Assembly: GCA_963766115.1 (NCBI GenBank)
Contig: CAVXYR010000006.1
Span: 177,514-241,513 of the forward strand
DNA: 64,000 nucleotides
Reading direction: 5' to 3'
Source: an uncultured Solirubrobacterales bacterium
Lineage (GTDB): Bacteria > Actinomycetota > Thermoleophilia > Solirubrobacterales > 70-9
Under the pieces are notes generated by a model, which was not told where the DNA came from, did no database searches, and worked only from the letters and a program-made list of their open reading frames with translations. The position numbers and the translations under genes are program-made. This document shows, in pieces, positions 2,727 to 43,391 of this stretch (positions are counted from its first letter, which is position 1; the number at the start of each line of letters is the position of its first letter).

Positions 2727-3590
2727 ATGAACCCGTTGCTGACCGGGATCCTGGTCTGTCCTCACTGCGGCGGCGACCTCCGCGAAAACGGGGGTGCGCT
2801 GATCTGCAGCGCCGGACATACCGCGAACGTCGCCCGACAGGGTTACGTCAGCCTGCTCGGCCGCCACTCGGGCACCCACACCGCCGACTCGGCCGTGATG
2901 ATCGCCGCCCGGGAGCGCTTTCTCGCCCGGGGACATTTCCAGCCGATCGTCGACGCCGTGGTCGCCGAGGTCGGAGGTGCAGTGGATCGTGAAGTGTCTC
3001 CGCCCGGAGCTCCTGACCGGGAGCGTGTGCTGATCGATCTCGGCGCGGGAACCGGCTACTACCTGGCCGCGGCGCTCGCCTCCGACGAACATGCTCTGGG
3101 ACTGGGCATCGACAACTCGAAGTACGCCGCCCGCCGCGCGGCCAGATGCCATCCCCGGGCCGGTGCGGTGGTCGCCGACATCTGGGACGATCTGCCGGTC
3201 CGTACCGGCGCGGCGACGGTCGTGCTCAACGTCTTCGCCCCGCGCAACGGCGAGGAGATCCGCCGGATCCTCGCTCCGGGTGGAACCCTGATCGTGGTCA
3301 CCCCGGTCGAGGGGCACCTGAACGAGCTGAGCGGTCCGTTCGAGATGATCTCGATCGATCCTGAAAAAGAATCGCGGCTCGAGGAAACGCTCGGCCACCT
3401 GACCGGCCGGAGGGAGAGCCGTCTCATCGAGTGGAGCATGGATCTCGACCGCGGGTCGGTGACCGACCTGGTCGGGATGGGTCCGAATGCCGGCCGGCTC
3501 GAGCCGGCCGGCTTCCAGGCGGCCCTCGAACGGCTGCCTGACCCGGCCCCGGTCTCCGGCGCGGTCCGGATAACCTCCGCGGTCGGCTGA
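2727..3590 (+). CDS. SAM-dependent methyltransferase with N-terminal Cys4-type zinc ribbon (RlmA/RrmA-like rRNA methyltransferase family)
   Basis: 287 aa. Has CPHCGG...CSAGH zinc ribbon, the SAM motif LIDLGAGTGYY, and LAPGGTLIVVTP. Architecture matches 23S rRNA G745/G748 methyltransferase-like proteins. Confidence 0.7.
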   Translation: MNPLLTGILVCPHCGGDLRENGGALICSAGHTANVARQGYVSLLGRHSGTHTADSAVMIAARERFLARGHFQPIVDAVVAEVGGAVDREVSPPGAPDRERVLIDLGAGTGYYLAAALASDEHALGLGIDNSKYAARRAARCHPRAGAVVADIWDDLPVRTGAATVVLNVFAPRNGEEIRRILAPGGTLIVVTPVEGHLNELSGPFEMISIDPEKESRLEETLGHLTGRRESRLIEWSMDLDRGSVTDLVGMGPNAGRLEPAGFQAALERLPDPAPVSGAVRITSAVG

Positions 3591-3635
3591 CCCGCCGCCG
3601 GCGGGCACGGCGGGCAAACGGGAAGGAGGAACGGC

Positions 3636-5540
3636 GTGACTGATCGCAAAGACGCATCCGAGTTCACCAAGGCGGCCAACCGGGCTGTCCTGGAGCAGCT
3701 TCCGTTCGAGGACCTCCAGGACTTCGAGGACGCCTCCCGTGGCTTCGTCGCTCCACTGCCGGAAGGTCACGTGGTCAAGGAGGACGGTGACTTCGTCTAC
3801 GACACCGCCCGGCTGGCGTTCACCGAGGGTCACGAGGAATCGCCGGATTCCGTGAACCCGAGCCTCTGGCGGCAGGCCCGCCTGGTCGCCAAAGGCGGGC
3901 TGTTCGAGGTCTGCGACCGGATCTACCAGGTTCGTAACCTCGATATCTCGAACCTGACCGTGATCGAGGGTGATACCGGGGTGATCGTGGTCGATCCCCT
4001 GATCTCGGCCGAAACCGCCCGGGCCGCGCTCGACCTCTACTTCGAGCACCGTCCGGAGAAGCCGGTCGTGGCGGTGATCCACTCGCACAGCCACGTTGAC
4101 CACTACGGCGGCGTCCGCGGCGTCGTCGACGAGCAGGACGTGCGCGACGGCAGGGTGAAGATCATCGCCCCGGAGGGCTTCCTCGAGGCCGCCGTCTCGG
4201 AGAACGTGATGGCCGGCAACGCGATGTCGCGGCGGGCGATGTTCCAGTTCGGGCCGCTGCTCGCCCCGGACGAGAAAGGCACGGTCGGGGTCGGGCTCGG
4301 GTCGGGCATCTCGCTGGGCACGATCACTCTGATCCCACCGACCGACCACGTCACCGAGGACGGGCAGCGCATGGTGATCGACGGGCTGACCTTCGAATTC
4401 ATGCCGACCCCCGACACAGAAGCGCCGGCCGAGATGCACTGGTTCATCAAGGAGCTGAACGCGGTGACCGCGGCCGAGAACTGCGTGCACACGCTGCACA
4501 ACACGTACCCGATCAGGGGGGCGCAGGTCCGCGACCCGCAGGCCTGGTCGCACTACCTGAACGAGACGATAGAGCGCTGGGGCAGCCGGGCCGAAGTCAT
4601 GTACGGGATGCACCACTGGCCGGTCTGGGGCAGCGAGCGGGTGGTCGAGATGCTGAGCAAGGGCCGCGACGCCTACCGCTACATAAATGACCAGACCCTG
4701 CGCCTGGCCAACCATGGCCTGACACCGGACGAGATCGCCGAGGTGCTCGAGCTGCCCGACTCGATCGCGGGACACTGGGCGACCCGTGGCTATTACGGCA
4801 CGGTCAGCCACAACGTCAAGGCCACCTACACCCGCTACCTGGGCTGGTATGACGGCAACCCGGCCAACCTCCACCGCCTGCCGCCGGTAGAGGCGGCCGA
4901 ACGCTACGTCGAGTTCATGGGTGGCGCCAGCCAGATCCTGTCGCGGGCCAGGGAGTACTTCGAAAAGGGCGAGTACCGCTGGGTGGCCGAAGTGGTGAAC
5001 CTGGTCGTATTCAGCGACCCGACCAACCAGGAGGCTCGCGATCTCGAAGCCGACGCGATGGAGCAACTGGCCTACCAGACCGAGTCGGCAACCTGGCGGA
5101 ACGCTTACCTGACCGCCGCCCAGGAGCTTCGTCTGGGTACTCCGTCACTGCCGATCTCCGCCGATTCGGCAAGCCCCGATTCGATCGCCGCGCTCACCCT
5201 GGAAATGGTCTTCAACTACCTCGGCATGAGGCTGAACGGTCCCGACGCCGGGGCCAGGGAGATCACCCTCAACCTGACCTTCCCCGACACCAACCAGAAC
5301 GCCTGGCTGAAGCTCTCCAACGGGGCGCTCAGCCATTCGGTCGAGCGGTCGGTGCCGTCGCCCGACGCCACCGTAACGCTCGACCGGAGCACCCTGAACT
5401 CGATCGTCACCGGCAAGCTGGAGCTCGAGCAGGCGATCTCGTCCGGCGAGGTCAGGGCCGAGCCCGACCCCGCCCCGCTGATCGAGTTGATCGGGCTGCT
5501 CGATGAGTTCGACCTCTGGTTCCCGGTCATCGAGCCCTGA
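3636..5540 (+). CDS. Alkyl/aryl-sulfatase, metallo-beta-lactamase fold with C-terminal SCP2-like domain (SdsA1/BDS1 type)
   Basis: 634 aa, GTG start. MBL motif HSHSHVDHYGG, the dimerisation region typical of alkyl sulfatases, and a C-terminal sterol-carrier-like tail. Confidence 0.8.
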   Translation: MTDRKDASEFTKAANRAVLEQLPFEDLQDFEDASRGFVAPLPEGHVVKEDGDFVYDTARLAFTEGHEESPDSVNPSLWRQARLVAKGGLFEVCDRIYQVRNLDISNLTVIEGDTGVIVVDPLISAETARAALDLYFEHRPEKPVVAVIHSHSHVDHYGGVRGVVDEQDVRDGRVKIIAPEGFLEAAVSENVMAGNAMSRRAMFQFGPLLAPDEKGTVGVGLGSGISLGTITLIPPTDHVTEDGQRMVIDGLTFEFMPTPDTEAPAEMHWFIKELNAVTAAENCVHTLHNTYPIRGAQVRDPQAWSHYLNETIERWGSRAEVMYGMHHWPVWGSERVVEMLSKGRDAYRYINDQTLRLANHGLTPDEIAEVLELPDSIAGHWATRGYYGTVSHNVKATYTRYLGWYDGNPANLHRLPPVEAAERYVEFMGGASQILSRAREYFEKGEYRWVAEVVNLVVFSDPTNQEARDLEADAMEQLAYQTESATWRNAYLTAAQELRLGTPSLPISADSASPDSIAALTLEMVFNYLGMRLNGPDAGAREITLNLTFPDTNQNAWLKLSNGALSHSVERSVPSPDATVTLDRSTLNSIVTGKLELEQAISSGEVRAEPDPAPLIELIGLLDEFDLWFPVIEP

Positions 5541-5612
5541 GCGGGCCGGAAAACCAGGCCCGCTCCGACCGGCTGAACACCGACCCGGTAGAGGTTGGGT
5601 TATGGTGGAAAC

Positions 5613-6473
5613 ATGGAAGATGGGCCTGAAAAAAGCCCGGGAAGCGTCGCAGGGACCGGTGCCGCCCACCGCGTCCTCCTGGTCGCCGACGAGCGGTTCA
5701 GGGGAGCCGAGTTCGCTGACGAACTGAGGGGCCACCTCGAGGAGCGTCCGACCGAGGTCGAGGTCTTCGTGATCACACCGGCGCTGGCTCACTCCGGCCT
5801 GGAACACGAAATGGCCGGCATCGACGGCCCGATAGAGGAAGCGAAGGAGCGGCTCGCTTCGATCATCTCCGAGCTCGATTCGGTCGGCATCGCCGCCACC
5901 GGAGAAGTCGGTGACAGCGATCCGATAGTCGCGGTCGGCGACGGGGTCAGGGAATTCGGGGCGGACGAGATCGTTGTCGTCGGGCACGCCGAGGGAGAGC
6001 GTGAATACGCCGAGAAGGACCTCTGGAGCAAGCTCAAGGCCGAGGTGCACGAACCGATGGTCGCCCTGATGGTCGGCCACGGCGACGGCGATACCACGCC
6101 CGGAGTGGTCGAGATCGACCGCGAGCCGGCAAAGGAGTTCACCGAAGACGAGGTGATCCAACGGACCAGGAACGTTCCGCCGGTCCGAACCCGGGACGCG
6201 GTCGCGATCTTGTTCGGCTTCGTCGGCACCTTCGCGATCGCGTTGATGGCGGTCGATTCCGGGATCTCCGACAACGGGGACATTTCGGGTGGATCGGCGG
6301 CGATCCTTCTGCTGGCGATGGGGGCGTTCATCATCAATGTCGCCCACACCGTCGGCGTGCTCGTCTTCGAGAGCGTCCACTACGAGGGCATCTGGGAAAA
6401 GTTCATCGCCTGGTCGGCGATCATCTTCACCGCATTCGCCCTGGTCGCCTCGGTCGTCTTCTGGCAGGCCTGA
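5613..6473 (+). CDS. Hypothetical protein: N-terminal USP-like/alpha-beta domain plus C-terminal 3-4 TM segment
   Basis: Track ORF 5595-6473; I prefer the ATG at 5613. HRVLLVADE...VFVITPAL...GADEIVVVGH resembles universal-stress/adenine-nucleotide-hydrolase-like folds. Hydrophobic C-terminus (AILFGFVGTFAIALMAV..., LLLAMGAFIINVAH...). Confidence 0.5.
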   Translation: MEDGPEKSPGSVAGTGAAHRVLLVADERFRGAEFADELRGHLEERPTEVEVFVITPALAHSGLEHEMAGIDGPIEEAKERLASIISELDSVGIAATGEVGDSDPIVAVGDGVREFGADEIVVVGHAEGEREYAEKDLWSKLKAEVHEPMVALMVGHGDGDTTPGVVEIDREPAKEFTEDEVIQRTRNVPPVRTRDAVAILFGFVGTFAIALMAVDSGISDNGDISGGSAAILLLAMGAFIINVAHTVGVLVFESVHYEGIWEKFIAWSAIIFTAFALVASVVFWQA

Positions 6474-22362: not shown

Positions 22363-24033
22363 CTACTCGGCCGGGATCACTATCCGCGAGCAGGGTGGGG
22401 CACCGGGATCGGCGGCGACGTCACCGGTGTCAAGCACCGGATTGTCCTTGGCGTCGAGCAGGTCGATCTTCAGCTTCGCTTTGGTCACCTCGACCTCGGC
22501 GTAGCTGAACTGGTCGGTCGCGGCGCACTGCATGCCCAGCCCTGTCGGAGGTTGCGGTTTCAGGAAGAGGTTCTGGATCAGCGGGCCGGCAGCAGGATTG
22601 CCGGTCGCCGTGTCGATCTCCCCGGTGTAGTTCTCGGTCGCGACCGGGCCGCTGGTCACGTCGAGGATCCCCGAGTCCTGGACCCCGGCCGGGCCGAGCG
22701 TGTTGAACCGGGCGTCGTTGACCAGGTTGGCGTGGACGTCGGTGGTCAGGAAGACGGCGTTCCTGACCTTGTTCTGAATGAACTTCAGAAGGGCCTGCCG
22801 CTCGTTTTCGTAGCCTTCCCAGCGGTCGTAGGGCAGGGCGTAGTACTGCTGAATCGGCACCTCGTTGAAGATCACCTTGAAGGTCGCGTTCGAGTTCCTG
22901 ATCGCCTTCTTGAAGGTCTTCAGCTGTGAGGAGCCGAGCATCGTCCGGCTGGGGTCGTTGATCGCGTCGAGGCAGCCTTGCGATACCGGGTTGGCCAGGG
23001 TCGGGACCAGCGCGGCGAAAGCGTTGCGCGTGCTTTGAGGAGCGGTCGGCGCCAGGTCGGGATCGCCGCTGCCGGCCGGGTTGTCGCAGGCACCGTCGTA
23101 GTCGGCGCTGGAGGAGCGGAACGAGCGCTCGTCGAGGAAGAAGATCTCGAGGTTCTTTCCCCACCGCTGGGTCCGGTAGATGCCCGACTCCTTCTTGTAG
23201 GCGACCGGGTTGTAGTCGGTGAACGCCTCGACACCGTCCTTGTAGAGCTTCTTGCCACTGATGTTGGTGACGCCCTGCGGCACACCTTGGTTGCTGTAGG
23301 GAAAAGAGTTCTCCTGCTGGGAGAAGTCGTTGAGGAATTCGTGATCGTCCCAGTGGGCGTAGTAGGCGGCCGCGCCACGCGCCTTGACCCAGGGCTTCAT
23401 TCCGAGGTTGGTCTTGTAGGCAGCCCACTTCTGCTTGACCGAGACGGCGACATCGGACAGCGTGTACCCCGGCACCTCGGTGTCGGAATAGATCGTGTCG
23501 CCCATCAACACGTTGAAGTCGTTGTTCTGGGCCTTGATCCTTTTCCAGACCTCGAAGTTGTTCCAGTACGGCTTCGTGTCCCCGGGGAGCGGCCGGGCGT
23601 CCTGGTCGCCGGCGAGCGCGAAACGGATCTTCTTTCTCTGCTTCTGTTTGGGGGCGGTCTTGAAGTGACCCGTCTCGCTCTTGCGGCCGTTCTTCATGCA
23701 GAACCGGTACTTGTACTTCGTCCCGGGGCGAAGCTTCTTGATCCGCTTCTGAACGGTCAGGTCGTTGGACTTCTTCGCCTTGACCGTGTACTTGCCCGGT
23801 GCCTGCTTGAGCTTGCACTTGCCGAACCCCCCCTTTCGGGCGATCTGGATCAGCACTTTGCCCTGCTTGGCCGAACGCGCCCAGACGATTGCCGACTTGG
23901 CCCTGACGTCGCCGGTGGCGACGCCGTACTTGAACCCCTTTGACCCGGCCGATGCCCCGGACGGCAACACCAGGGCTCCAGTCAGAATGAGGAGGAGCAT
24001 GACCGGAGCAAGCAGCGAGCGCGATTTCGGCAT
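22363..24033 (-). CDS. phoD: PhoD-family alkaline phosphatase/phosphodiesterase, secreted, Lys-rich
   Basis: 556 aa. Signal-like MPKSRSLLAPVMLLLILTGALVLPSGASA. PhoD_N-like GVATGDV...SAIVWAR, and metallophosphatase motifs FALAGDQD, GDTIYSD, HWDDHEF. Confidence 0.85.
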   Translation of the reverse strand: MPKSRSLLAPVMLLLILTGALVLPSGASAGSKGFKYGVATGDVRAKSAIVWARSAKQGKVLIQIARKGGFGKCKLKQAPGKYTVKAKKSNDLTVQKRIKKLRPGTKYKYRFCMKNGRKSETGHFKTAPKQKQRKKIRFALAGDQDARPLPGDTKPYWNNFEVWKRIKAQNNDFNVLMGDTIYSDTEVPGYTLSDVAVSVKQKWAAYKTNLGMKPWVKARGAAAYYAHWDDHEFLNDFSQQENSFPYSNQGVPQGVTNISGKKLYKDGVEAFTDYNPVAYKKESGIYRTQRWGKNLEIFFLDERSFRSSSADYDGACDNPAGSGDPDLAPTAPQSTRNAFAALVPTLANPVSQGCLDAINDPSRTMLGSSQLKTFKKAIRNSNATFKVIFNEVPIQQYYALPYDRWEGYENERQALLKFIQNKVRNAVFLTTDVHANLVNDARFNTLGPAGVQDSGILDVTSGPVATENYTGEIDTATGNPAAGPLIQNLFLKPQPPTGLGMQCAATDQFSYAEVEVTKAKLKIDLLDAKDNPVLDTGDVAADPGAPPCSRIVIPAE

Positions 24034-26780: not shown

Positions 26781-26822
26781 GAGAACAGGCGACCATCCGG
26801 TCGCGTCAGTCAGGAGGGATCG

Positions 26823-28769
26823 GTGAGCGTGCTGGGTCTGCGCTGCGTTGCAAGGATTGCGGGACCGGCGTCGTCCGCTGCGGCAGTGGCCGTCCTGCTC
26901 GCGTTGGCGGTCTCACCCGCCGGAGCCGCCCCCCAGGGCCCCTGGGTACAGCCTGCAGTCGATCTCTCGGCATCGGCCGCCGACAAAGACGCTCAGGACC
27001 CTCAGATTGCCACCGCACCCGACGGTACCGCGACTGTGGTCTGGCACCGCTGGAATGGCAGCGGAGATGGCGACACGGCGGTAATCCAGGCCGCGACCCG
27101 CCCGCCCGGTGGGGCGTTCAGCGCCCCAGTGGAGGTGTCGGTAGCCGGCCGGACCGCTATCCATCCACAAATCTCGGGCGCTGCCGACGGCAGCGTCACA
27201 GTTGTCTGGCAGCGCGACAACGGCAGCAACACCATCATCCAGGCCGCGACCCGCCCGCCCGGCGGCAACTTCGGCCTTCCGGCGGATCTGTCGGCTCCCG
27301 GCCGGGACGCGGGTGATCCTCAGATCGAGGTAGCCCCCGACGGTGCGGCCACTGCAGTGTGGCGGCGATCCGACGGAAGCAAGCAGATCACTCAGGCCGC
27401 GTCCCGCCCGCCCGGCGGGGTGTTTGGTGCCCCGGTGAATCTGTCGGCCCCTGGCCAGAACGCCTTTGGCAGGCCTCAGGTCGCGTCCGACCCAGACGGC
27501 GCTTTCACCGCGGTCTGGTCCCGCGAGGACGGCAGCAACGACATCGTTCAGGCCGCGACCCGCCCGCCCGGCGGCAGCTTCGGTGCCCCGGTCGATCTGT
27601 CGGCAACTGGCCAGGACAACGACAGGTCCCAGATCGCGATAGCCCCGGACGGCACGGCCACGGTTGTCTGGCGACGCTCCGACGGCACCAACACGATAAT
27701 CCAGGCCGCGACCCGGCCGCCTGGCGGGATATTCGGCGCCCCGATCACTATCTCGACGATCGGCCAGGACGCCCAGGCGCCTCAGATCGCCGCCGCATCG
27801 GACGGCACGGCCACTGCAGTCTGGTTCGGAAACGTAGGAGGCAACTTCATCATCCAGGCCGCGACCCGCCCGCCCGGCGGTAGCTTCGGCGCCCCGGTCA
27901 ATCTCTCGGCCATCGGCCAGAACGCCTTCAACCCCCAGATCACGGTCGGTCCGGACGGCACTGCCACCGTGGTGTGGCAGCGCTCCAACGGCAGCAACAA
28001 CATCATCCAGGCAGCGACCCGGCCACCCGGTGCTCCGTTCGGTTCGCCGGTGAATCTTTCCGCAAACGGCCGCGACGCCGAGCAGGCTCAGATAGCCTCG
28101 TTCCTCGACGGCGCTGCCATCGCGGTCTGGAACCGATTCAACGGGACCAACGAGATCGTTCAATCGATTTCCACCGCCCAGCCCTCACTTCTGCTCGGCG
28201 TGGCCAAGAACGGCTCCGGCAAAGGCACGGTCACCTCCAGCCCCGCGGGAATCGACTGCGGCAACGACTGCGCCGCGAGCTACCTCTCGTTCACCAAGGT
28301 CACCCTGGCCGCCACGCCCGAGAACGGCAGCTCATTCGAGGGCTGGGGAGGGGCCTGCGAGGAGGCGGCCGGTAACACCTGCGAGCTGACCATGCTCGAC
28401 GACGAAAATGTCACCGCCACCTTCGGCAAGGCGGGGTTGAAGGTGACCAGGGTCAAGCCGAGAAAGCCGAAGGTCAAGCGAGGCAGGAAGGTCAAGCTCA
28501 AGGTAACGGCCAAGAACACAGGCGATGCGACGGCCAACAAGGCAAAGCTATGTGTAAAGCTGAAAAAGAGCGTGAAGAAGAAGCTCAAGCCAAAAGGCAA
28601 GAACTGCAAGAAGCTCGGCTCACTGGCTCCGGGCAAGGCCAAGACCAGGACCTTCAAGCTGAAGGCCACCGGCAGGGCCAAGCGAGGCAAGAAGTACAAG
28701 GCCCAGTTCAGGCTTTCGGCTGACGGGCCGAAGGCCGCCAAGGCGGCGGTCGGGGTGAAGGTGAGGTAG
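26823..28769 (+). CDS. Secreted protein: signal peptide, 8 x 51-aa repeats (propeller-like), InlB-B-repeat-like Cys domain, Lys-rich Ig/CARDB-like C-terminal module
   Basis: 648 aa, GTG start. Repeat consensus is PQIAxAPDGTATVVWxRxDGSNxIIQAATRPPGGxFGAPVxLSAxGQDA. Then GKGTVTSSPAGIDCGNDCAASY...GWGGAC...CELTM...VTATF. The tail has about 33 Lys in about 110 aa by hand count. Confidence 0.85.
   Translation: MSVLGLRCVARIAGPASSAAAVAVLLALAVSPAGAAPQGPWVQPAVDLSASAADKDAQDPQIATAPDGTATVVWHRWNGSGDGDTAVIQAATRPPGGAFSAPVEVSVAGRTAIHPQISGAADGSVTVVWQRDNGSNTIIQAATRPPGGNFGLPADLSAPGRDAGDPQIEVAPDGAATAVWRRSDGSKQITQAASRPPGGVFGAPVNLSAPGQNAFGRPQVASDPDGAFTAVWSREDGSNDIVQAATRPPGGSFGAPVDLSATGQDNDRSQIAIAPDGTATVVWRRSDGTNTIIQAATRPPGGIFGAPITISTIGQDAQAPQIAAASDGTATAVWFGNVGGNFIIQAATRPPGGSFGAPVNLSAIGQNAFNPQITVGPDGTATVVWQRSNGSNNIIQAATRPPGAPFGSPVNLSANGRDAEQAQIASFLDGAAIAVWNRFNGTNEIVQSISTAQPSLLLGVAKNGSGKGTVTSSPAGIDCGNDCAASYLSFTKVTLAATPENGSSFEGWGGACEEAAGNTCELTMLDDENVTATFGKAGLKVTRVKPRKPKVKRGRKVKLKVTAKNTGDATANKAKLCVKLKKSVKKKLKPKGKNCKKLGSLAPGKAKTRTFKLKATGRAKRGKKYKAQFRLSADGPKAAKAAVGVKVR
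26999..28163 (+). repeat. Coding tandem repeat array, approx 153-bp period (8 units)
   Basis: The CAGGCCGCGACCCGCCCGCCCGG-type core recurs at 27088, 27241, 27394, 27550, 27703, 27856, 28009 and approx 28162. Confidence 0.85.
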
Positions 28770-28770
28770 G
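28164..28770 (+). repeat. 607-bp segment identical to 30083-30689 (copy 1)
   Basis: Constant offset of 1919 bp. All lines I compared are identical, and the track proteins have an identical C-terminal approx 200 aa. Identity ends at 28771 versus 30690. Confidence 0.85.
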
Positions 28771-28771
28771 G

Positions 28772-30688
28772 GTGCCCGGGCCGCAAAGCGTTCCGAGGTT
28801 TGCGGTACCGGCCTGCGTCGCTGCGGCGTTGGCCGTCTGCCTCGCGCTCGTCGCTTCACCGGCAGGAGCCGCGCCCCAGGGACCCTGGGTGCAGCCGGCA
28901 ACCGATCTTTCGGCCACCGGGCAAAGCGCCTTCGGCCCTCAGGTCACCGCGGCCGCCGACGGCACCGTCACCGCGGTCTGGCATCGCAACGGCACCAACA
29001 AGATCGTCCAGGCCGCGACCCGCCCGCCTGGCGGAATATTCGGCGCCCCGGTCAATCTCTCGGCGGCCGGCCAGGATGCCTCGGGCCCAAGCATTGCCAC
29101 GGCGCCGGACGGGACCGCTACCGTCGTCTGGGTCCGCGACAACGGCACCAACCAGATCGCTCAGGCCGCGACCCGACCCCCTGGTGGGGTATTCGGCGCC
29201 CCGGTCGATCTCACGGCCCCGGGTCAGGATTCCGGTCCCTGGGACATCGCGGCTGCCCCCGACGGCACCGTTACGGTGCTCCTTGCCCGACTCATCGGCA
29301 CCAAATTTGTCATCCAGGCCGCGACCCGCCCGCCCGGCGGCAGCTTCGGCGCCCCGGTGAATCTGTCGACTCCCGGTCAGGACGCCTTCTGGTCGAGGAT
29401 CGCGATCTCCCCTGACGGCACCGCCACCGCGGTTTGGTATGCCTCCAACGGCAGCAACGACATCATCCAGACCGCGACCCGCCCGCCAGGAGGCAGCTTC
29501 GGGCCGCCGGTAAACCTGTCGGTGACCGGCGAGGACGCGAGATTTCCCGAGCTTGCCGCCGCTACGGACGGCACCGTCACCGTCGTCTGGGAGCGCGATG
29601 AAGGCAGCGACCGGATCATCCAGACAGCTACCCGCCCGCCGGGCGGGGTATTCGGCGCCCCGGTAAACCTTTCGGCTACCGGGCAGGAAGCCGAGGGCCC
29701 TCAGATCGCCATCGCGGCGGACGGCACCGCCACGGCGGTCTGGTCAGCCTGGGACGGAAGCATGTACGCCGTGCAGGCCTCGACCAGGCCGCCCGGCGGA
29801 GTATTCGGCTCCCCGGTAGACCTGTCGTTCTCGGACCAGAACGCTAAGTTCCCTCAGATTGCCACGGCGCCCGACGGCACTGCCACTGCGGTCTTTCAAA
29901 GCAACGACGGAAGCGATGACATCGCCCAGGCCGCGACCCGCCCGCCCGGCGGCAGCTTCGGAGCCCCGGTCGACCTGTCGGCGACCGGCGACGATGCCCG
30001 CGACGCCCAGATCGCGATCGCCCAGGACGGAACCGCCCATTCTGTCTGGGGCAGATGGAACGGCAGCAACTACATAATCCAGTCGATTTCCACCGCCCAG
30101 CCCTCACTTCTGCTCGGCGTGGCCAAGAACGGCTCCGGCAAAGGCACGGTCACCTCCAGCCCCGCGGGAATCGACTGCGGCAACGACTGCGCCGCGAGCT
30201 ACCTCTCGTTCACCAAGGTCACCCTGGCCGCCACGCCCGAGAACGGCAGCTCATTCGAGGGCTGGGGAGGGGCCTGCGAGGAGGCGGCCGGTAACACCTG
30301 CGAGCTGACCATGCTCGACGACGAAAATGTCACCGCCACCTTCGGCAAGGCGGGGTTGAAGGTGACCAGGGTCAAGCCGAGAAAGCCGAAGGTCAAGCGA
30401 GGCAGGAAGGTCAAGCTCAAGGTAACGGCCAAGAACACAGGCGATGCGACGGCCAACAAGGCAAAGCTATGTGTAAAGCTGAAAAAGAGCGTGAAGAAGA
30501 AGCTCAAGCCAAAAGGCAAGAACTGCAAGAAGCTCGGCTCACTGGCTCCGGGCAAGGCCAAGACCAGGACCTTCAAGCTGAAGGCCACCGGCAGGGCCAA
30601 GCGAGGCAAGAAGTACAAGGCCCAGTTCAGGCTTTCGGCTGACGGGCCGAAGGCCGCCAAGGCGGCGGTCGGGGTGAAGGTGAGGTAG
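28772..30688 (+). CDS. Paralogue of 26823-28769 with the same architecture
   Basis: 638 aa. The GTG lies 2 nt after the upstream TAG, with GAAGGTGAGG as RBS. Eight repeats with an exact 153-bp period and an identical C-terminal third. Confidence 0.85.
   Translation: MPGPQSVPRFAVPACVAAALAVCLALVASPAGAAPQGPWVQPATDLSATGQSAFGPQVTAAADGTVTAVWHRNGTNKIVQAATRPPGGIFGAPVNLSAAGQDASGPSIATAPDGTATVVWVRDNGTNQIAQAATRPPGGVFGAPVDLTAPGQDSGPWDIAAAPDGTVTVLLARLIGTKFVIQAATRPPGGSFGAPVNLSTPGQDAFWSRIAISPDGTATAVWYASNGSNDIIQTATRPPGGSFGPPVNLSVTGEDARFPELAAATDGTVTVVWERDEGSDRIIQTATRPPGGVFGAPVNLSATGQEAEGPQIAIAADGTATAVWSAWDGSMYAVQASTRPPGGVFGSPVDLSFSDQNAKFPQIATAPDGTATAVFQSNDGSDDIAQAATRPPGGSFGAPVDLSATGDDARDAQIAIAQDGTAHSVWGRWNGSNYIIQSISTAQPSLLLGVAKNGSGKGTVTSSPAGIDCGNDCAASYLSFTKVTLAATPENGSSFEGWGGACEEAAGNTCELTMLDDENVTATFGKAGLKVTRVKPRKPKVKRGRKVKLKVTAKNTGDATANKAKLCVKLKKSVKKKLKPKGKNCKKLGSLAPGKAKTRTFKLKATGRAKRGKKYKAQFRLSADGPKAAKAAVGVKVR
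28937..30082 (+). repeat. Coding tandem repeat array, exact 153-bp period (8 units)
   Basis: Core recurs at 29010, 29163, 29316, 29469, 29622, 29775, 29928 and 30081. Confidence 0.85.
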
Positions 30689-30689: not shown

Positions 30690-31184
30690 CGCCGATTCCG
30701 GATTTCGCCTGGCCTTCTCGACACACCGTTGACGATCCTTGAGGTAGGCGCGAATCGTCTCACGGATAGAGCACGCCGCGATGCCGGCGCTCGAACCAAG
30801 GGCCTTCACAAGAGCGGGCGCCTTGCCTGTTGAGGCTTCTCTCATTGCTTGTTGACAGTGTTCTCAACGTCACACCGCGACGTGACGATCGAGAAGCAAC
30901 GATTAACAGCGCATTCAACGATTCCAGAGAAGAGACCCGAACTCCCTACCCGCGGATCACGGCCGCCGGAAGGCAATGCGGGTGGGTTCGGGAATTGCCC
31001 CGAATAGTTCTGAGCGGGAATCGGAGGCCTGCTTGCTTCGGTAACGGAATCGCGAAGTGGGCCGGGCATCAGTTGCCCGCTGCGCGAATCCATCCGCGGA
31101 CGGTCGCGTGCGAGTGAAACCTTGAGGATGGCCCCCGGGCGAGGGTATGCTTACCCTGGTCTGTCCTGCAACCCGGAGGGTCTC

Positions 31185-31997
31185 ATGCGCTTCCTGCCTC
31201 GCCCCACCTACGCCAACGTAGTCGCCACGCTCGCGATCTTCATTGCCTTGGGCGGCATCAGCTACGCCGCCACCAATCTCAGCAAGAACAGCGTCGGCAC
31301 CAAGCAGATCAAGAAAAACGCGGTAACCAAGGCGAAGATCAAGAAGAAAGCGGTGACCAAGGCGAAGATTCAGAAAAGTGCGGTGACCAAGGCGAAGATT
31401 CAGAAAAGTGCGGTGACCGGCGCGAAGATCCAGGATAATGCGGTCGCCACTTCGAAGATCGCGAACGAAGCCGTCACCCAGGGGAAGGTCGACCCGAACC
31501 TGCTGGCTTCGATCGACGAGGACGCGAAGCTGAAGGTATTAAATGGCGACGGCAGCGTCTTGGGAACTTTGGTAGGGGTGCTGCCCTCCGGCATACCGAT
31601 CTTCCAGGTCCTCATCGAGGGTGGGATCTATACCTACTTTCCCTCGGGTCAGGTCTACCCGTTTACCGGCTTCTCTCCGTCGTACAAGAACAACGCCTGC
31701 ACCGGCACGCCGTACGTGGAAGCCGACGACCAGGCAGAAGCCGATCTCCTGTTCTCCAACCTGGCCGGGGGACCGTCGCGAATCACCTACCGGACTACGG
31801 CAGGCGGCAATCTCGGACCGGTCTCGGCATGGCAGTTCACGACGACAAATGAGAGCGTCGTGGGGCAGAACCTGTGGGAACGGGATGACACCGGAGCCTG
31901 TGGGCCGACCAGCAGCAGTCCGTTCACGGGCGTGCTGATCGCGCTGGATCCCGTCACCGCGCCGCCGGACGGCACCGGACCGCTGACTATCGGCTGA
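31185..31997 (+). CDS. N-terminally anchored protein with Lys-rich 10-aa (2 x pentapeptide-like) repeats and an uncharacterised C-terminal domain
   Basis: ATG at 31185 after GGAGGG. MRFLPRPTYANVVATLAIFIALGGISYA (TM/signal anchor). Then KKNAVTKAKI/KKKAVTKAKI/QKSAVTKAKI/QKSAVTGAKI/QDNAVATSKI/ANEAVTQGKV, followed by a globular C-terminal region with two Cys. Confidence 0.7.
   Translation: MRFLPRPTYANVVATLAIFIALGGISYAATNLSKNSVGTKQIKKNAVTKAKIKKKAVTKAKIQKSAVTKAKIQKSAVTGAKIQDNAVATSKIANEAVTQGKVDPNLLASIDEDAKLKVLNGDGSVLGTLVGVLPSGIPIFQVLIEGGIYTYFPSGQVYPFTGFSPSYKNNACTGTPYVEADDQAEADLLFSNLAGGPSRITYRTTAGGNLGPVSAWQFTTTNESVVGQNLWERDDTGACGPTSSSPFTGVLIALDPVTAPPDGTGPLTIG
31351..31410 (+). repeat. Exact 30-bp tandem duplication inside the repeat region
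   Basis: CGGTGACCAAGGCGAAGATTCAGAAAAGTG occurs twice back to back, at 31351-31380 and 31381-31410. Confidence 0.9.
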
Positions 31998-32219: not shown

Positions 32220-33381
32220 TTGTTACGTTGGGCGGACGCATGGAATACCTCTCCACTAGGAATCTTCGCCGGCTCCCGCAAGCAGGACGAGCGACGGCTC
32301 CCGCTCCATCCGCGCCACATCGCCGACATCGATCAGGATCTGCGCGAGCGCATCTACCTCGAGCACGGCTACGGCAGCCGCTTCGGGTTTCGCGACGCCG
32401 ACCTCGCCCCGCTCGTCGGCGGCCATCGCACCCACGAGGAGCTCGTCACCGAGTGCGACGTGCTGTTGCAGCCAAAGCCGCTGGCGGCCGATGTCGCCGA
32501 GATGCGGGAGGGCCAGGTGCTCTGGGGCTGGCCCCACTGCGTCCAGGACGAGGCGCTGACCCAGGCGGCGATCGATCGCCGGGCGACGATCATCGCCTGG
32601 GAGGCGATGAACCACTGGAACTCCGACGGCACCTTCAACCTGCACGTCTTCCACATGAACAACGAGCTCGCCGGCTACTGCTCGGTCCTGCACGCGCTAC
32701 AGCTGACCGGGGTCACCGGCAAGTACGGGCGGCCGCTGCGGGCCTGCGTGGTCGGCTTCGGGGCGACCGGACGCGGCGCGGTGACGGCGCTGGCGGCGCT
32801 CGGTGTGCACGAGGTCTCGGTCCTGACCCAGCGCGAGGTCGCCGCCGTCGCCTCTCCGATCCACTCGGTTCAGATGATCACCTTCGAGCGGGATCCCGAC
32901 CACCCCGGCGATACGCTCGAGCTCGACGGCCGCCACGAGTCGGTCGAGGAGTTCCTCGCCGGGCCACGACGTGATCGTCAACTGCGTCTTCCAGGACACC
33001 GATGCGCCGCTGATGCTCGTCACGAACGAGGAGCTGCCCCGGTTTCGCTCCGGCAGTCTCTTCGTCGACGTCTCCTGCGACGAAGGCATGGGGTTCGAAT
33101 GGGCGCGGCCGACGTCGTTCGCGGATCCGACCTTCACCGTCGGCGACGGGCTCACCTACTACGCCGTCGACCACAGCCCGAGCTTCCTCTGGGATTCGGC
33201 GACCTGGGAGATCAGCCTCGCGCTGATGCCCCACCTGCGCACGGTGATGGAGGGGCCCGCGAGCTGGCTCACCGACGAGGTGATCGCCCGCGCGATCGAG
33301 ATCCGCGACGGCGAGATCCAGAACCCGAAGATCCTCTCCTTCCAGGGCCGGGCTTCCGAGTTCCCGCACACGCGGGCCTGA
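32220..33381 (+). pseudogene. N5-(carboxyethyl)ornithine synthase-like (alanine dehydrogenase/PNT family) gene, frameshifted near 32958-32968
   Basis: The N-terminal part is in the frame of track ORF 32220 (up to ...HESVEEFLAG). The C-terminal part is in the frame of ORF 32971 (HDVIVNCVFQDT...VDVSCDEGMGFE...YYAVDHSPS). Span is 1162 nt, i.e. 3n+1. The start codon is uncertain. Confidence 0.7.
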
Positions 33382-33435
33382 GCAAGCGGCTGAAGACGCT
33401 CCCGCTCGGTCGAGAGACCCGGCTCCGCAGCCTAG

Positions 33436-33509
33436 TGCCGGGAGCAGGACTCGAACCTGCGACACGCGGATTATGATTCCGCTGCTCTAACCAGCTGAGC
33501 TACCCCGGC
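33436..33509 (-). tRNA. tRNA with CAT anticodon (Met; an Ile2/lysidine identity cannot be excluded)
   Basis: The reverse complement is GCCGGGGTAGCTCAGCTGGTTAGAGCAGCGGAATCATAATCCGCGTGTCGCAGGTTCGAGTCCTGCTCCCGGCA. It forms a cloverleaf with a 7-bp acceptor, GCGGA/TCCGC anticodon stem, loop ATCATAA and T-arm GCAGG-TTCGAGT-CCTGC. CCA is not encoded. Confidence 0.85.
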
Positions 33510-39370: not shown

Positions 39371-39399
39371 TTGACCCGGTCCCGGTTGCGGCGTATCTT
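39371..39399 (+). promoter_or_regulatory. Putative sigma-70-type promoter (TTGACC-17 nt-TATCTT)
   Basis: TTGACC at 39371-39376 and TATCTT at 39394-39399, about 50 nt upstream of the ATG at 39449. Confidence 0.45.
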
Positions 39400-39448
39400 G
39401 CCATTGGGCAAGCCGGTGTTCGGAGCCAATCGAGGGAGGTCAGAGGTT

Positions 39449-40939
39449 ATGAAGCGACGCAGGTTCAGTTGGATCGGGATCCCGGTAGGTCTGGGCGTCT
39501 GCCTTGCGATGCTGGGCGGGGCTTCGGGTGCGAGCGCGTTGACGATCACGGTCAGCACGACAAACGATGAACTGGGCGGCAACCCCGCCGGCTGCTCGCT
39601 TCGGGAAGCGATCAGCTCTGCGAACAGCAACTCGGCGATCGGCGGCTGCACTGCCGGTTCCGGGGCCGACGTGATCAAGCTGCCGGGGGGCGAGTACAGG
39701 ATTGTGCGGCCGGGCAGCGGCGAAGACCTGAACTCGACCGGCGACTTCGACATCACCGGCAGCGAATCGGTGACTGTCGAGCCTTCCGGGGGAGACGACA
39801 AGGTCACGGTCGACGGCAACGGCCTCGATCGCGTCTTCGACCAGCTCGGGACAGCGGCCCTCCAGGTGAACAACCTGACCGTCACCGGCGGGCAGACCCC
39901 GGTATTGGACGACGGCGGCGGTATCCGCAACGGCGGAGCCGGCACCCTCACCCTCAACGGCGCCACCGTCACCGACAACCAGGCGACGGTCAGCGGCGGC
40001 GGCGTAGTCGTGTATGCGAGCTCCACGATCGTCAACAGCACGATTTCCGACAACCGCTCCGGCGGCGGCGGCGGCGGAATCTACGCGGCCGGCAGCACGA
40101 CGCTGACCGTCCGGAGCTCGACGATCACCGACAACGAAGCCGACTACGACGCCAATGACACCGGGGACGGTGGCGGCTTCAATGAGGCGATGGCGACGTC
40201 GGTCAGCTTCTTCAACGTGATCAATGCCGAGAACCGCGACGGTTCATCGCTTCCGGCGAACCAGTGGCCGGACTGCTACAGCACGAGCGCGTTCTTCTTC
40301 CCTCGTTTCACCCTGAGCACCCAGGCGATGGGGGCCGGGAATTGCCTGGTCGGGTTCGCCCATCCGGGCAACCAGGTCGTCGCCGATCCGATGATCGGGC
40401 CACTGGCCGACAACGGCGGTCAGACCAGGACCCACGCGCTGCTCGAGGGCAGCCCGGCGATCGGCGCCGGCGGAACCACGGGCACCGACACCTGCCCCCC
40501 GGTCGACCAGAACGGCAACCCCCGTCCTGCCGACAGCTGCGATATCGGGGCGGTCCAGTTCATCGGCAACGACACTCCGATCCCCCCTCCGGGTGGCGGA
40601 GCGGCCGACATGAAGATCGTCAAGGTCAAGCCGAAGAAGCTGAAGCTGAAGCGTGGCAAGAAGGCGAAGAAGGCCAAGGTGGTGGTGCGGAACGACGGCG
40701 ATGCAGCCGGCGCCTCGGTGGAGGTCTGCCTGAAGCTTCCGAAGAAGACCAGGAAGGCGATCAAGCTGAAGGGCAAGAAGTGCCGCAACACGGCCAGCTT
40801 CGCGCCGGGCAAGAAGGTCTACAAGTTCAAGCTGAAAGCGAAGAAGAAGGCCGGGAAGAAGGCCTACAAAGGCAAGGTCACCATGAACGCCGAAGGAGCC
40901 GGCACGAAGAAGGCCAAGCTGAAGATCAAGGTCAAGTAG
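39449..40939 (+). CDS. Secreted beta-helix protein (choice-of-anchor-Q-like) with a Lys-rich Ig/CARDB-like C-terminal module
   Basis: ATG at 39449 after GGGAGG. Signal MKRRRFSWIGIPVGLGVCLAMLGGASGASA. CSLREAISSAN, repeated NxTVTGG/NSTISDN beta-helix-like turns, GPLADNGGQTRTHALLEGSPAIGAG and CDIGAVQF. Then MKIVKVKPKKLKLKRGKK...KIKVK. Confidence 0.8.
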   Translation: MKRRRFSWIGIPVGLGVCLAMLGGASGASALTITVSTTNDELGGNPAGCSLREAISSANSNSAIGGCTAGSGADVIKLPGGEYRIVRPGSGEDLNSTGDFDITGSESVTVEPSGGDDKVTVDGNGLDRVFDQLGTAALQVNNLTVTGGQTPVLDDGGGIRNGGAGTLTLNGATVTDNQATVSGGGVVVYASSTIVNSTISDNRSGGGGGGIYAAGSTTLTVRSSTITDNEADYDANDTGDGGGFNEAMATSVSFFNVINAENRDGSSLPANQWPDCYSTSAFFFPRFTLSTQAMGAGNCLVGFAHPGNQVVADPMIGPLADNGGQTRTHALLEGSPAIGAGGTTGTDTCPPVDQNGNPRPADSCDIGAVQFIGNDTPIPPPGGGAADMKIVKVKPKKLKLKRGKKAKKAKVVVRNDGDAAGASVEVCLKLPKKTRKAIKLKGKKCRNTASFAPGKKVYKFKLKAKKKAGKKAYKGKVTMNAEGAGTKKAKLKIKVK

Positions 40940-43080: not shown

Positions 43081-43391
43081 TCACGGTCAGGCCCAACCCG
43101 GCCGGTTCGAGTCCTGCCGGGGCCAACAGCCGGCGGCCGTACCAGAATCCCGTCGGCCCTGTTTCGCCACCGGGACCCCCCGGGAGTGGTAGGTTGTTTT
43201 CGAGGCTCGAACCTGTGCGTTAGCCGTCTCATAAATTGACCCAACATCAATGGCACGGGAGCCGATCTCTCCCTGTCCCCTGCGGGATGGGAGGTAGGCA
43301 CCCACCTGTATTTCAGGGATCAATGCCAGAGGCGGCGTCGGCAGGTTGGGGCCTCGTTTTCGTTCCCCGGTCCGGTTAGGATCGGGGACCT

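Follow-up and report, generated by a model that had tools for sequence, protein, structure and literature searches.

The described systems closest to the genes reported here are the propeller lectins of the PLL/PHL (PropLec7A) and BP39L/CV39L (PropLec7C) groups, which are built from tandem units of about 50 amino acids (aa), have high internal symmetry and fold into seven-bladed β-propellers. The classification of propeller lectins stops at PropLec7, with seven blades (PMC11186620). The PDIAV motif-containing lipoproteins (NCBIfam NF053835) and glycoside hydrolase family 43 (GH43; Pfam PF04616), which has a five-bladed catalytic domain, are further points of comparison. Here we describe a tandem pair of genes, gene 1 and gene 2, from an uncultured Solirubrobacterales soil actinobacterium, analysed within a 64-kb window (the whole stretch of DNA under study) to which all coordinates refer. 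Both genes lie on the plus strand, and each encodes a predicted secreted protein with three parts: an eight-bladed propeller, a Flg_new_2 (PF18998) domain and a lysine-rich immunoglobulin (Ig)-like domain. Propellers joined to Ig-like domains are a familiar kind among secreted bacterial proteins; here the repeat family is uncurated, the propeller has eight blades, and it is joined to a polycationic module of which we found no description in the literature. We propose, with about even confidence, that these are exported proteins, retained or targeted through their tails, that present the propeller for multivalent binding.

A preliminary description of this DNA had reported two adjoining co-directional genes carrying a repeat of strict period. 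The listing of open reading frames (ORFs) bears out the pair, both with GTG starts, and the period is as described: successive RPPG motifs of the QAATRPPG stretch are 153, 153, 156, 153, 153 and 153 nt apart in gene 1 and 153 nt apart throughout gene 2, which corresponds to intervals of 51 aa with a single one of 52 aa, in gene 1. Tandem Repeats Finder returned a period of 153 (scores 641 and 518), and a hidden Markov model (HMM) of the unit, built on 14 full units, scored 84–94 bits on each full unit, so that the periodicity is far beyond chance. The unit HMM matches gene 1 at residues 55–109, 110–160, 161–211, 212–263, 264–314, 315–365, 366–416 and 417–454, the first unit being 55 aa long owing to an insertion, and gene 2 from residues 51–100 through 407–444, as seven full units and one partial unit with all spacings 51 aa.

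Each gene had been credited with eight such units. The 51-aa unit stands, but a count of eight complete copies does not: RPPG occurs seven times per gene, and the eighth blade is split. After the seventh unit comes a truncated eighth (unit positions 1–32), which ends in SISTAQPS in place of AATRPPG and supplies strands A–C of the last blade, and strand D is PWVQPAxDLSA, directly past the signal peptide. This is a classic velcro closure. The gene 1 propeller consists of the N-terminal velcro strand, seven full units (51–55 aa) and the terminal three-strand unit, and seven full units plus a split one is the rule in all 57 relatives analysed. The unit HMM picks up the N-terminal fragment (unit positions 32–51) in 13 of these 57, and across the family the conservation of its residues W41, P44 and S51 is 90% or more. 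Propeller proteins carry either 8 units or, in double-propeller relatives, 15–17.

Three relatives of this second type, P0124 (842 aa), P0125 (914 aa) and P0042 (831 aa), have two consecutive eight-bladed propellers. Unit scores are the same in the two halves of P0124, which points to an internal duplication of very recent date.

Structure prediction gives the eight-bladed propeller that had been suggested from the size of the unit. AlphaFold2 (AF2), run with the 57-sequence alignment, reached a mean predicted local distance difference test (pLDDT) score of 90.8 and a predicted template modelling (pTM) score of 0.83. DSSP resolves the model into eight four-stranded blades (long A, B and C and a short D), followed by two all-β (β-sandwich) domains. 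The N-terminal strand at residues 46–47 closes the ring with C-terminal strands A–C at residues 419–451; this is the arrangement of a velcro propeller, with ring closure read from the strand pattern and canonical propeller topology. A separate AF2 model of residues 453–648 agrees (pLDDT 92.4). When the PDB was searched with Foldseek, the top matches were seven-bladed bacterial lectins, PLL4 first (8q82; E = 2e-11, template modelling score to the target 0.70) and then PLL2, PHL, PLL3/5 and CV39L (8q82, 6rg2, 6gxs and 5mxe; E from 2e-11 to 1e-9). Integrin alpha is a generic fold match only, and the C-terminal two-domain model found generic Ig-like folds only (pilins, complement MG domains and transglutaminase barrels).

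The consensus drawn from 254 ungapped units of the 57 relatives is QDAxxPQIAxAPDGTATAVWxRxNGSNxIIQAATRPPGGSFGxPVDLSAxG. Across these units G14, W20, F41 and S48 are about 98% conserved, and R35, G39, Q31 and G51 95–96%. The near-invariant columns of the propeller as a whole (D13, G14, W20, R35, G38/39, F41 and S48) all belong to the repeat consensus, and no residue that is invariant in one particular blade, Asp, Glu and His included, was found in the 57 relatives. The most variable unit positions are 4, 5, 21 and 28 (3.4–3.7 bits), which canonical topology puts on the DA/BC-loop face, at the tips of strands A, B and C. The propellers are acidic, with isoelectric points (pI) of 4.3–4.6.

We compared the repeat with curated propeller families and repeat classes. 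The view that it stands outside described families is upheld, since searches of Pfam, NCBIfam (release of June 2026) and, by sequence, the PDB all stayed below curated cut-offs, save for a blade-level match to GH43 discussed below. The WD40, Kelch, YVTN and NHL signatures missing from the first inspection are likewise missing at E ≤ 1 from both window proteins. For Kelch, YVTN, NHL and PQQ we saw no match at E ≤ 1 or E ≤ 10 in the window proteins, the propeller alone or an idealised eightfold consensus, and none of these is among the 25 families shown for the 57 relatives at E ≤ 0.01. WD40 gave no Pfam match, and the unit measures 51 aa; against designed WD40 proteins the unit profile aligns only over a 13-residue stretch, 'vaFSPDGqtias', worth about 4 bits per blade. 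Nor is the unit a canonical Asp-box, as had been said: APDGTATAVW does not fit SxDxGxTW, for D and G are adjacent and W follows 6 residues past G. BNR gave no match at E ≤ 1 in the window proteins, and BNR_2 matched 1 of the 57 relatives at E ≤ 0.01. FG-GAP stayed below threshold (FG-GAP_3, 15.3–19.1 bits against a cut-off of 26.9) and was matched in one relative of the 57. Sequence searches of the PDB with the protein and with the family profile returned nothing credible, the best E values (0.05–0.08) being spurious.

The best curated match was to the PDIAV motif-containing lipoproteins, at 43.8 and 46.7 bits for the two proteins against a cut-off of 90. Among the 57 relatives 55 match this model (best E = 3e-19), with distant relatives reaching up to 78.1 bits; none of the members tested attains the cut-off. 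The counterpart of the PDIAV motif in the window unit is PQIAx, with which strand A begins, and the NF053835 model, with a length of 458, would have room for about eight 51-aa units. The window proteins have a plain Sec signal without the lipobox Cys expected of a lipoprotein, and the link to this family brings no mechanism with it. With the lectin models gene 1 reaches 30.4 bits for NF052349 (BP39L family; E = 2e-7, cut-off 400) and 26.6 bits for NF052348 (beta-propeller lectin; E = 3e-6, cut-off 200), and gene 2 reaches 20.2 bits; a lectin domain is matched in 11 of the 57 relatives. Relatives go down to E = 2e-18, and the best distant one scores 66.6 bits. The structurally matched lectins are chains of 336–363 residues, whereas the window proteins are predicted to be secreted and add Flg_new_2 and CARDB-like domains. 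Judged by sequence comparison, the repeat is of a type that no curated model covers and is remotely linked to the PDIAV lipoproteins, to lectins of the BP39L type and to GH43-like blades. Our literature searches turned up nothing relevant on PDIAV, PF22847, Solirubrobacterales propellers or lysine-rich CARDB domains.

The family is very large. A word-indexed search brought up at least 1,838 relatives, almost every one unnamed or 'hypothetical' and from metagenome-assembled genomes (MAGs) of Solirubrobacterales; an exhaustive search of 1.84 billion cluster representatives gave 12,493 representatives (50% identity) at E ≤ 1e-3 and 1,722 at E ≤ 1e-30. Exact look-ups of the public proteins P0001, P0005 and P0008 returned no record, and a cluster look-up gave no names. 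From species-representative genomes we collected 58 loci, nearly all from MAGs of Solirubrobacterales, Thermoleophilia or unclassified Actinomycetes, and often with several family members per genome. In distant relatives the propeller is fused to PKD, cadherin-like, He_PIG, TIG, RTX or IPTL-CTERM partners; some of them match BNR_2 or BNR_4, and one has a GH26 fragment.

Between propeller and tail lies a single all-β linker domain in which a likeness to InlB B-repeats had been noticed. It matches PF18998 (Flg_new_2) at 31.7 bits in both genes, over a cut-off of 23.6, across residues 460–536 of gene 1 and 450–526 of gene 2, and in gene 1 it holds four conserved Cys (479, 483, 512 and 520). The domain is present in 55 of the 57 relatives (best E = 2.5e-12).

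The lysine-rich module that follows, also recorded in the preliminary description, comprises 111 aa, among them 33 Lys, 9 Arg and 2 acidic residues, for a net charge of +40 and a pI of 11.8. It is probably a divergent CARDB-type Ig domain. The window tails score 16.3 and 16.2 bits with CARDB (PF07705; cut-off 22.7), and NPCBM_assoc is likewise below threshold; a module HMM joins them to terminal modules elsewhere, five of which score 30.9–34.8 bits with CARDB, and CARDB is matched in 27 of the 57 relatives. The predicted β-sandwich resembles CARDB and related Ig-like domains (DUF11, NPCBM_assoc, HYDIN/VesB-like), but the polycationic composition and strictly terminal position are missing from the Pfam family descriptions returned. 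A word-indexed search with the lysine-rich module alone had given 2 matches of 34 candidates and missed the parent proteins, and we used the HMM instead. Searched against all ORFs of the window and the 58 related loci, it found 44 polycationic modules, whose net charge is +34 at the median and of which 39 end no more than one residue from the C-terminus of their protein. Other passengers of the module are FG-GAP propellers, lactonase-type propellers with Big_13 arrays and, in the window itself, a β-helix protein. A sorting or retention module best explains a tail that is portable, strictly terminal and polycationic; probably it keeps its various passengers at the cell surface, where it would bind anionic polymers of the envelope electrostatically.

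The β-helix protein (39371–40939, plus strand) is a predicted secreted protein of 522 aa with a 'CSLREA' motif and a right-handed β-helix (matches to Beta_helix and NosD), and it ends in a polycationic module of about 110 aa with two Cys. A third paralogue of the propeller family, P0112, is encoded on the same contig outside the window; it has 567 aa, a signal peptide and eight blades, which lead directly, without Flg_new_2, into a different Lys/Arg-rich C-terminal domain.

Both N-termini have the make-up of Sec signal peptides, as they had appeared to at first sight: a basic n-region, a hydrophobic core and an A-x-A site, with SPAGA followed by APQGPWVQP in both proteins. In gene 1 the n-region has R7 and R11 and the core is AAAVAVLLALAV; the 12-aa Kyte-Doolittle maximum is 2.9 in both, and AF2 places a low-confidence helix at gene 1 residues 17–28. 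Inspection and hydropathy thus both give a Sec-type pattern of n-, h- and c-regions. Neither N-terminus has a twin-arginine motif, and in neither is there a lipobox Cys at the cleavage site, where SPAGA meets APQGPW (family consensus AxAAPQGPW). The C-termini, ending in AAKAAVGVKVR, have no LPXTG and no hydrophobic segment, the marks of a sortase-anchored protein, and neither window protein has a transmembrane anchor. The preliminary description had named the findings that would count against it, a match to a characterised family or the lack of a propeller fold or signal peptide; the searches gave no such match, and fold and signal peptide are both predicted.

The two genes are 2 nt apart. The start of gene 1 is preceded by AGGAGG and that of gene 2 by GAGG within the 3′ end of gene 1, which fits a single transcript with translational coupling; the two genes are probably co-transcribed and coupled in this way. 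No promoter consensus lies near the pair, terminator-like sites are within chance, and no Rfam element is near the genes.

How might such a protein work? After export by the Sec pathway, cleavage between AGA and APQGPW would free an N-terminus that completes the last blade as its outer strand and latches a rigid, highly symmetric, acidic propeller (pI about 4.5). A disulfide-containing Flg_new_2 spacer would come next, and then the CARDB-type Ig-like domain, whose net charge of about +40 could keep the protein, without a covalent bond, on the anionic envelope of the cell or on another polyanionic surface. The propeller would offer multivalent binding in the manner of a lectin or adhesin, whatever the chemistry of its ligand, and specificity could differ among the paralogues, of which a genome has many, often in tandem. 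We favour binding over catalysis because blade-specific residues are absent, symmetry is high, folds and remote links point to lectins, fusion partners are adhesin-like and the variable positions share a face. On this evidence the pair belongs to an unnamed, very large family whose most likely role is ligand binding at the cell surface.

Several observations weigh against this proposal. The described propeller lectins have seven blades and the window proteins eight; the scores with lectin models lie far below their cut-offs, which no relative passes; and the family sequence profile found none of the lectins in the PDB. All Foldseek matches are at 8–15% identity, which makes the likeness to lectins remote, and integrin alpha, sialidases and CylK score almost as high. 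The ligand-face assignment is taken from canonical propeller topology, not from coordinates, and substitutions relative to 82%-identical orthologues of gene 1 are not enriched on that face (16.8% versus 15.4%, p = 0.66). The ratio of non-synonymous to synonymous divergence (dN/dS) for the variable set is 0.72, for positions picked after the data had been seen. Ligand, binding-site residues and localisation are putative for every member, and the relatives are all 'hypothetical' proteins from MAGs. The signal peptides were assigned by eye. Apart from the propeller family itself and spurious opposite-strand ORFs, no neighbouring family recurs in more than 7 of the 58 loci. The missing promoter and terminator consensus counts here too, and neither supports nor contradicts a single transcript.

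One alternative is release of the proteins into the medium. The polycationic domain, with a net charge of +40 over about 110 aa, would then itself bind polyanions in the environment (extracellular DNA, polyphosphate, humic or mineral surfaces, other cells) and would not anchor the protein to its own cell, in keeping with the lack of a sortase motif, transmembrane anchor and lipobox. A PhoD-type secreted phosphatase encoded 2.8 kb upstream would suit such a protein, yet it does not recur as a neighbour in other loci, and a strictly C-terminal position on diverse passengers is typical of sorting or retention modules. We consider release unlikely, although sequence analysis alone does not separate it from our preferred explanation, retention at the surface.

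Retention could also serve a structural purpose. The propeller might be a self-assembly block of a surface coat, S-layer-like or matrix, and not a ligand binder at all: the proteins are predicted to be secreted, have a putative envelope-binding tail and come as many abundant paralogues, and the dipole between acidic propeller and basic tail could drive head-to-tail packing. The unit profile does match a propeller S-layer protein, 1l0q, if very weakly (E = 2.9). We found no indication of lattice formation, though, the tail module is common to unrelated passengers, and divergent paralogues and fusions to adhesin modules suit a binding repertoire better than a single coat protein. A coat seems to us improbable.

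Enzymatic activity of the propeller, with the C-terminal domains only targeting the substrate, seems a poor prospect. In its favour, gene 1 matches GH43 in Pfam at 32.7 bits, nominally over the cut-off of 32.2, and so do 14 of the 57 relatives at one score or another; the BNR_2 and BNR_4 matches and the GH26 fragment among relatives, together with the sialidases among the Foldseek matches, would fit a glycoside hydrolase akin to GH43 or to sialidase-type propellers. But gene 2 scores 23.4 bits, under the cut-off, and the match is confined to profile positions ~90–173 of 288, where 'IIQAATRPPGGxFGxP' (strand C and the CD loop) aligns to positions ~90–170. The idealised eightfold consensus matches GH43 positions 90–166 seven times, once per blade, and this repeated use of one segment indicates likeness at the level of a blade, not a five-bladed catalytic domain. 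The window propeller has eight equivalent blades and no blade-specific invariant Asp, Glu or His; propeller enzymes have asymmetric active sites, whereas its eight-fold symmetry is nearly perfect. We rejected membership of GH43, given no full-length match and no blade-specific conserved acidic residue.

Precomputed annotation also offered PF22847, which we rejected as a dedicated family: it is 'Glyco_hydro_43_rel', a label in line with the enzyme hypothesis, the annotation marks it as faint, and our local Pfam search was silent on it at E ≤ 10.

The two genes have had different histories along their length. Their final 606 nt, on which the preliminary description is silent, are 100% identical, the first mismatch from the 3′ ends falling at position 606; the identity begins near a domain boundary and breaks off just past the stop codon. 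The propeller DNA is 61–76% identical (synonymous divergence, dS, ~0.9; dN/dS ~0.38), and the blades of gene 1 and gene 2 are 64–77% identical all against all, with no diagonal signal and hence no positional orthology. Set against a propeller dS of ~0.9, 606 identical nt are most simply explained by recent gene conversion of the tail, and we regard the tract as a likely gene-conversion tract. The tail-encoding 3′ ends would then have been homogenised lately, and the propellers would have diverged long ago. Co-directional tandem arrays of two or three members occur in six related loci from independent MAGs (L003, L008, L017, L024, L029 and L047; for example at 3693–9860 in L008 and at 2844–6133 and 9354–11150 in L017), and in five of these (L003, L008, L017, L024 and L047) the 3′ parts are 77–89% identical as against 55–75% for the propellers. 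An assembly artefact, which exact 606-nt copies only 1.3 kb apart on a MAG-type contig might invite, is very unlikely as the source of the pair or even of the tract, for it might account for exact identity but not for the tandem arrangement of clearly distinct propeller genes, an arrangement that recurs in all six loci, with the 3′ modules again the most similar part in the five compared, nor does it sit well with identity that runs from near a domain boundary to just past the stop.

The surface-binding proposal has a bolder form, which we think possible but on the doubtful side: the propellers would be eight-bladed multivalent lectins ('PropLec8') that have undergone a massive expansion in soil Solirubrobacterales, and the polycationic module would be a portable anchor, bound non-covalently to the wall and kept uniform by gene conversion. 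They would descend remotely from a common stock with BP39L-type lectins and PDIAV lipoproteins and form a variable repertoire of surface lectins on a constant anchor in the wall of monoderm bacteria, the tail staying uniform while the propellers diverge. Solirubrobacterales are generally regarded as common soil bacteria. The order is known almost only from MAGs, and every related locus that we found comes from one. The family counts some 12,500 clusters (50% identity), with several paralogues in a genome, and has neither a curated model nor a name. If its members are lectins or adhesins that share a polycationic surface anchor, they would make up a major part of the contact of these bacteria with polysaccharides, with mineral or organic surfaces or with other cells, and a symmetric eight-bladed scaffold would extend the range of propeller lectins, which now ends at seven blades. 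A family model is merited for the unit as well as for the terminal module and would bring domain annotation to thousands of 'hypothetical proteins'. Should the function prove to be another, the domain family would still be well defined, which is useful though not surprising in kind.

Table 1. Features of the gene pair and related elements (positions within the 64-kb window)
Feature	Position	Strand	Basis and remarks
Shine-Dalgarno sequence AGGAGG	26812..26817	+	Read from sequence; 5 nt ahead of gene 1 GTG
Gene 1, 648-aa predicted secreted propeller protein	26823..28769	+	ORF listing; identical to public protein P0001
Gene 1 predicted Sec-type signal peptide, aa 1-35	26823..26927	+	Inspection, hydropathy; predicted cleavage between AGA and APQGPW
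Gene 1 eight-bladed β-propeller, aa 36-454	26928..28184	+	Unit HMM, DSSP of AF2 model, pLDDT >90, Foldseek
Identical 606-nt tract, copy 1	28164..28769	+	Blade 8 end, Flg_new_2, CARDB-like domain and stop
Gene 1 Flg_new_2 domain, aa 455-537	28185..28433	+	PF18998; all-β in models
Gene 1 polycationic CARDB-like Ig domain, aa 538-648, 2 Cys	28434..28766	+	Charge, module HMM, β-sandwich model with pLDDT >90
Gene 2, 638-aa paralogue of same architecture	28772..30688	+	ORF listing; identical to P0005; start 2 nt past gene 1 stop
Gene 2 predicted signal peptide, aa 1-33	28772..28870	+	Inspection, hydropathy
Gene 2 eight-bladed propeller, aa 34-444	28871..30103	+	Unit HMM; ~60% aa identity to gene 1 propeller
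Identical 606-nt tract, copy 2	30083..30688	+	Alignment of 3′ ends
Gene 2 Flg_new_2 domain, aa 445-527	30104..30352	+	PF18998, 31.7 bits
Gene 2 polycationic CARDB-like domain, aa 528-638	30353..30685	+	Sequence identical to gene 1 module
Polycationic module on β-helix protein (gene 39371-40939)	40607..40936	+	tblastn; module HMM E = 4e-15, net charge +37

The surroundings of the family vary from locus to locus, and we rejected an explanation through operon partners since the neighbourhood is not conserved across the 58 loci. There are two small syntenic subgroups of five loci each. In one (L003, L008, L009, L013 and L026) a common gene of about 947 aa and further genes lie downstream of the family gene; the other (L036, L040, L043, L044 and L047) has a different common neighbourhood.

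Within the window, the neighbours of the pair (the PhoD phosphatase, a methyltransferase, a DUF2568 protein and a lysine-rich repeat membrane protein) do not recur elsewhere. The PhoD-like phosphatase (22363–24033, minus strand) has its own signal peptide. Downstream of gene 2, after 430 nt, comes a 291-aa ORF (31122–31997, plus strand) with one N-terminal hydrophobic helix and a lysine-rich motif of about 10 aa, AVTKAKIQK or a variant of it, repeated in tandem; the ORF has no significant Pfam family. It is followed by an AlaDH/PNT-type ORF (32220–33476, plus strand) whose Pfam match covers the first 132 aa only; the rest is Arg-, Ala- and Pro-rich, as is typical of out-of-frame GC-rich DNA, and a protein-like continuation lies in another frame at 32971–33381 (plus strand). 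This looks like a frameshift, by sequencing error or in a pseudogene. The only Rfam matches at the gathering threshold in the window are a tRNA at 33436–33509 (minus strand, 65.7 bits) and a 6S RNA at 43202–43356 (plus strand, 56.3 bits).

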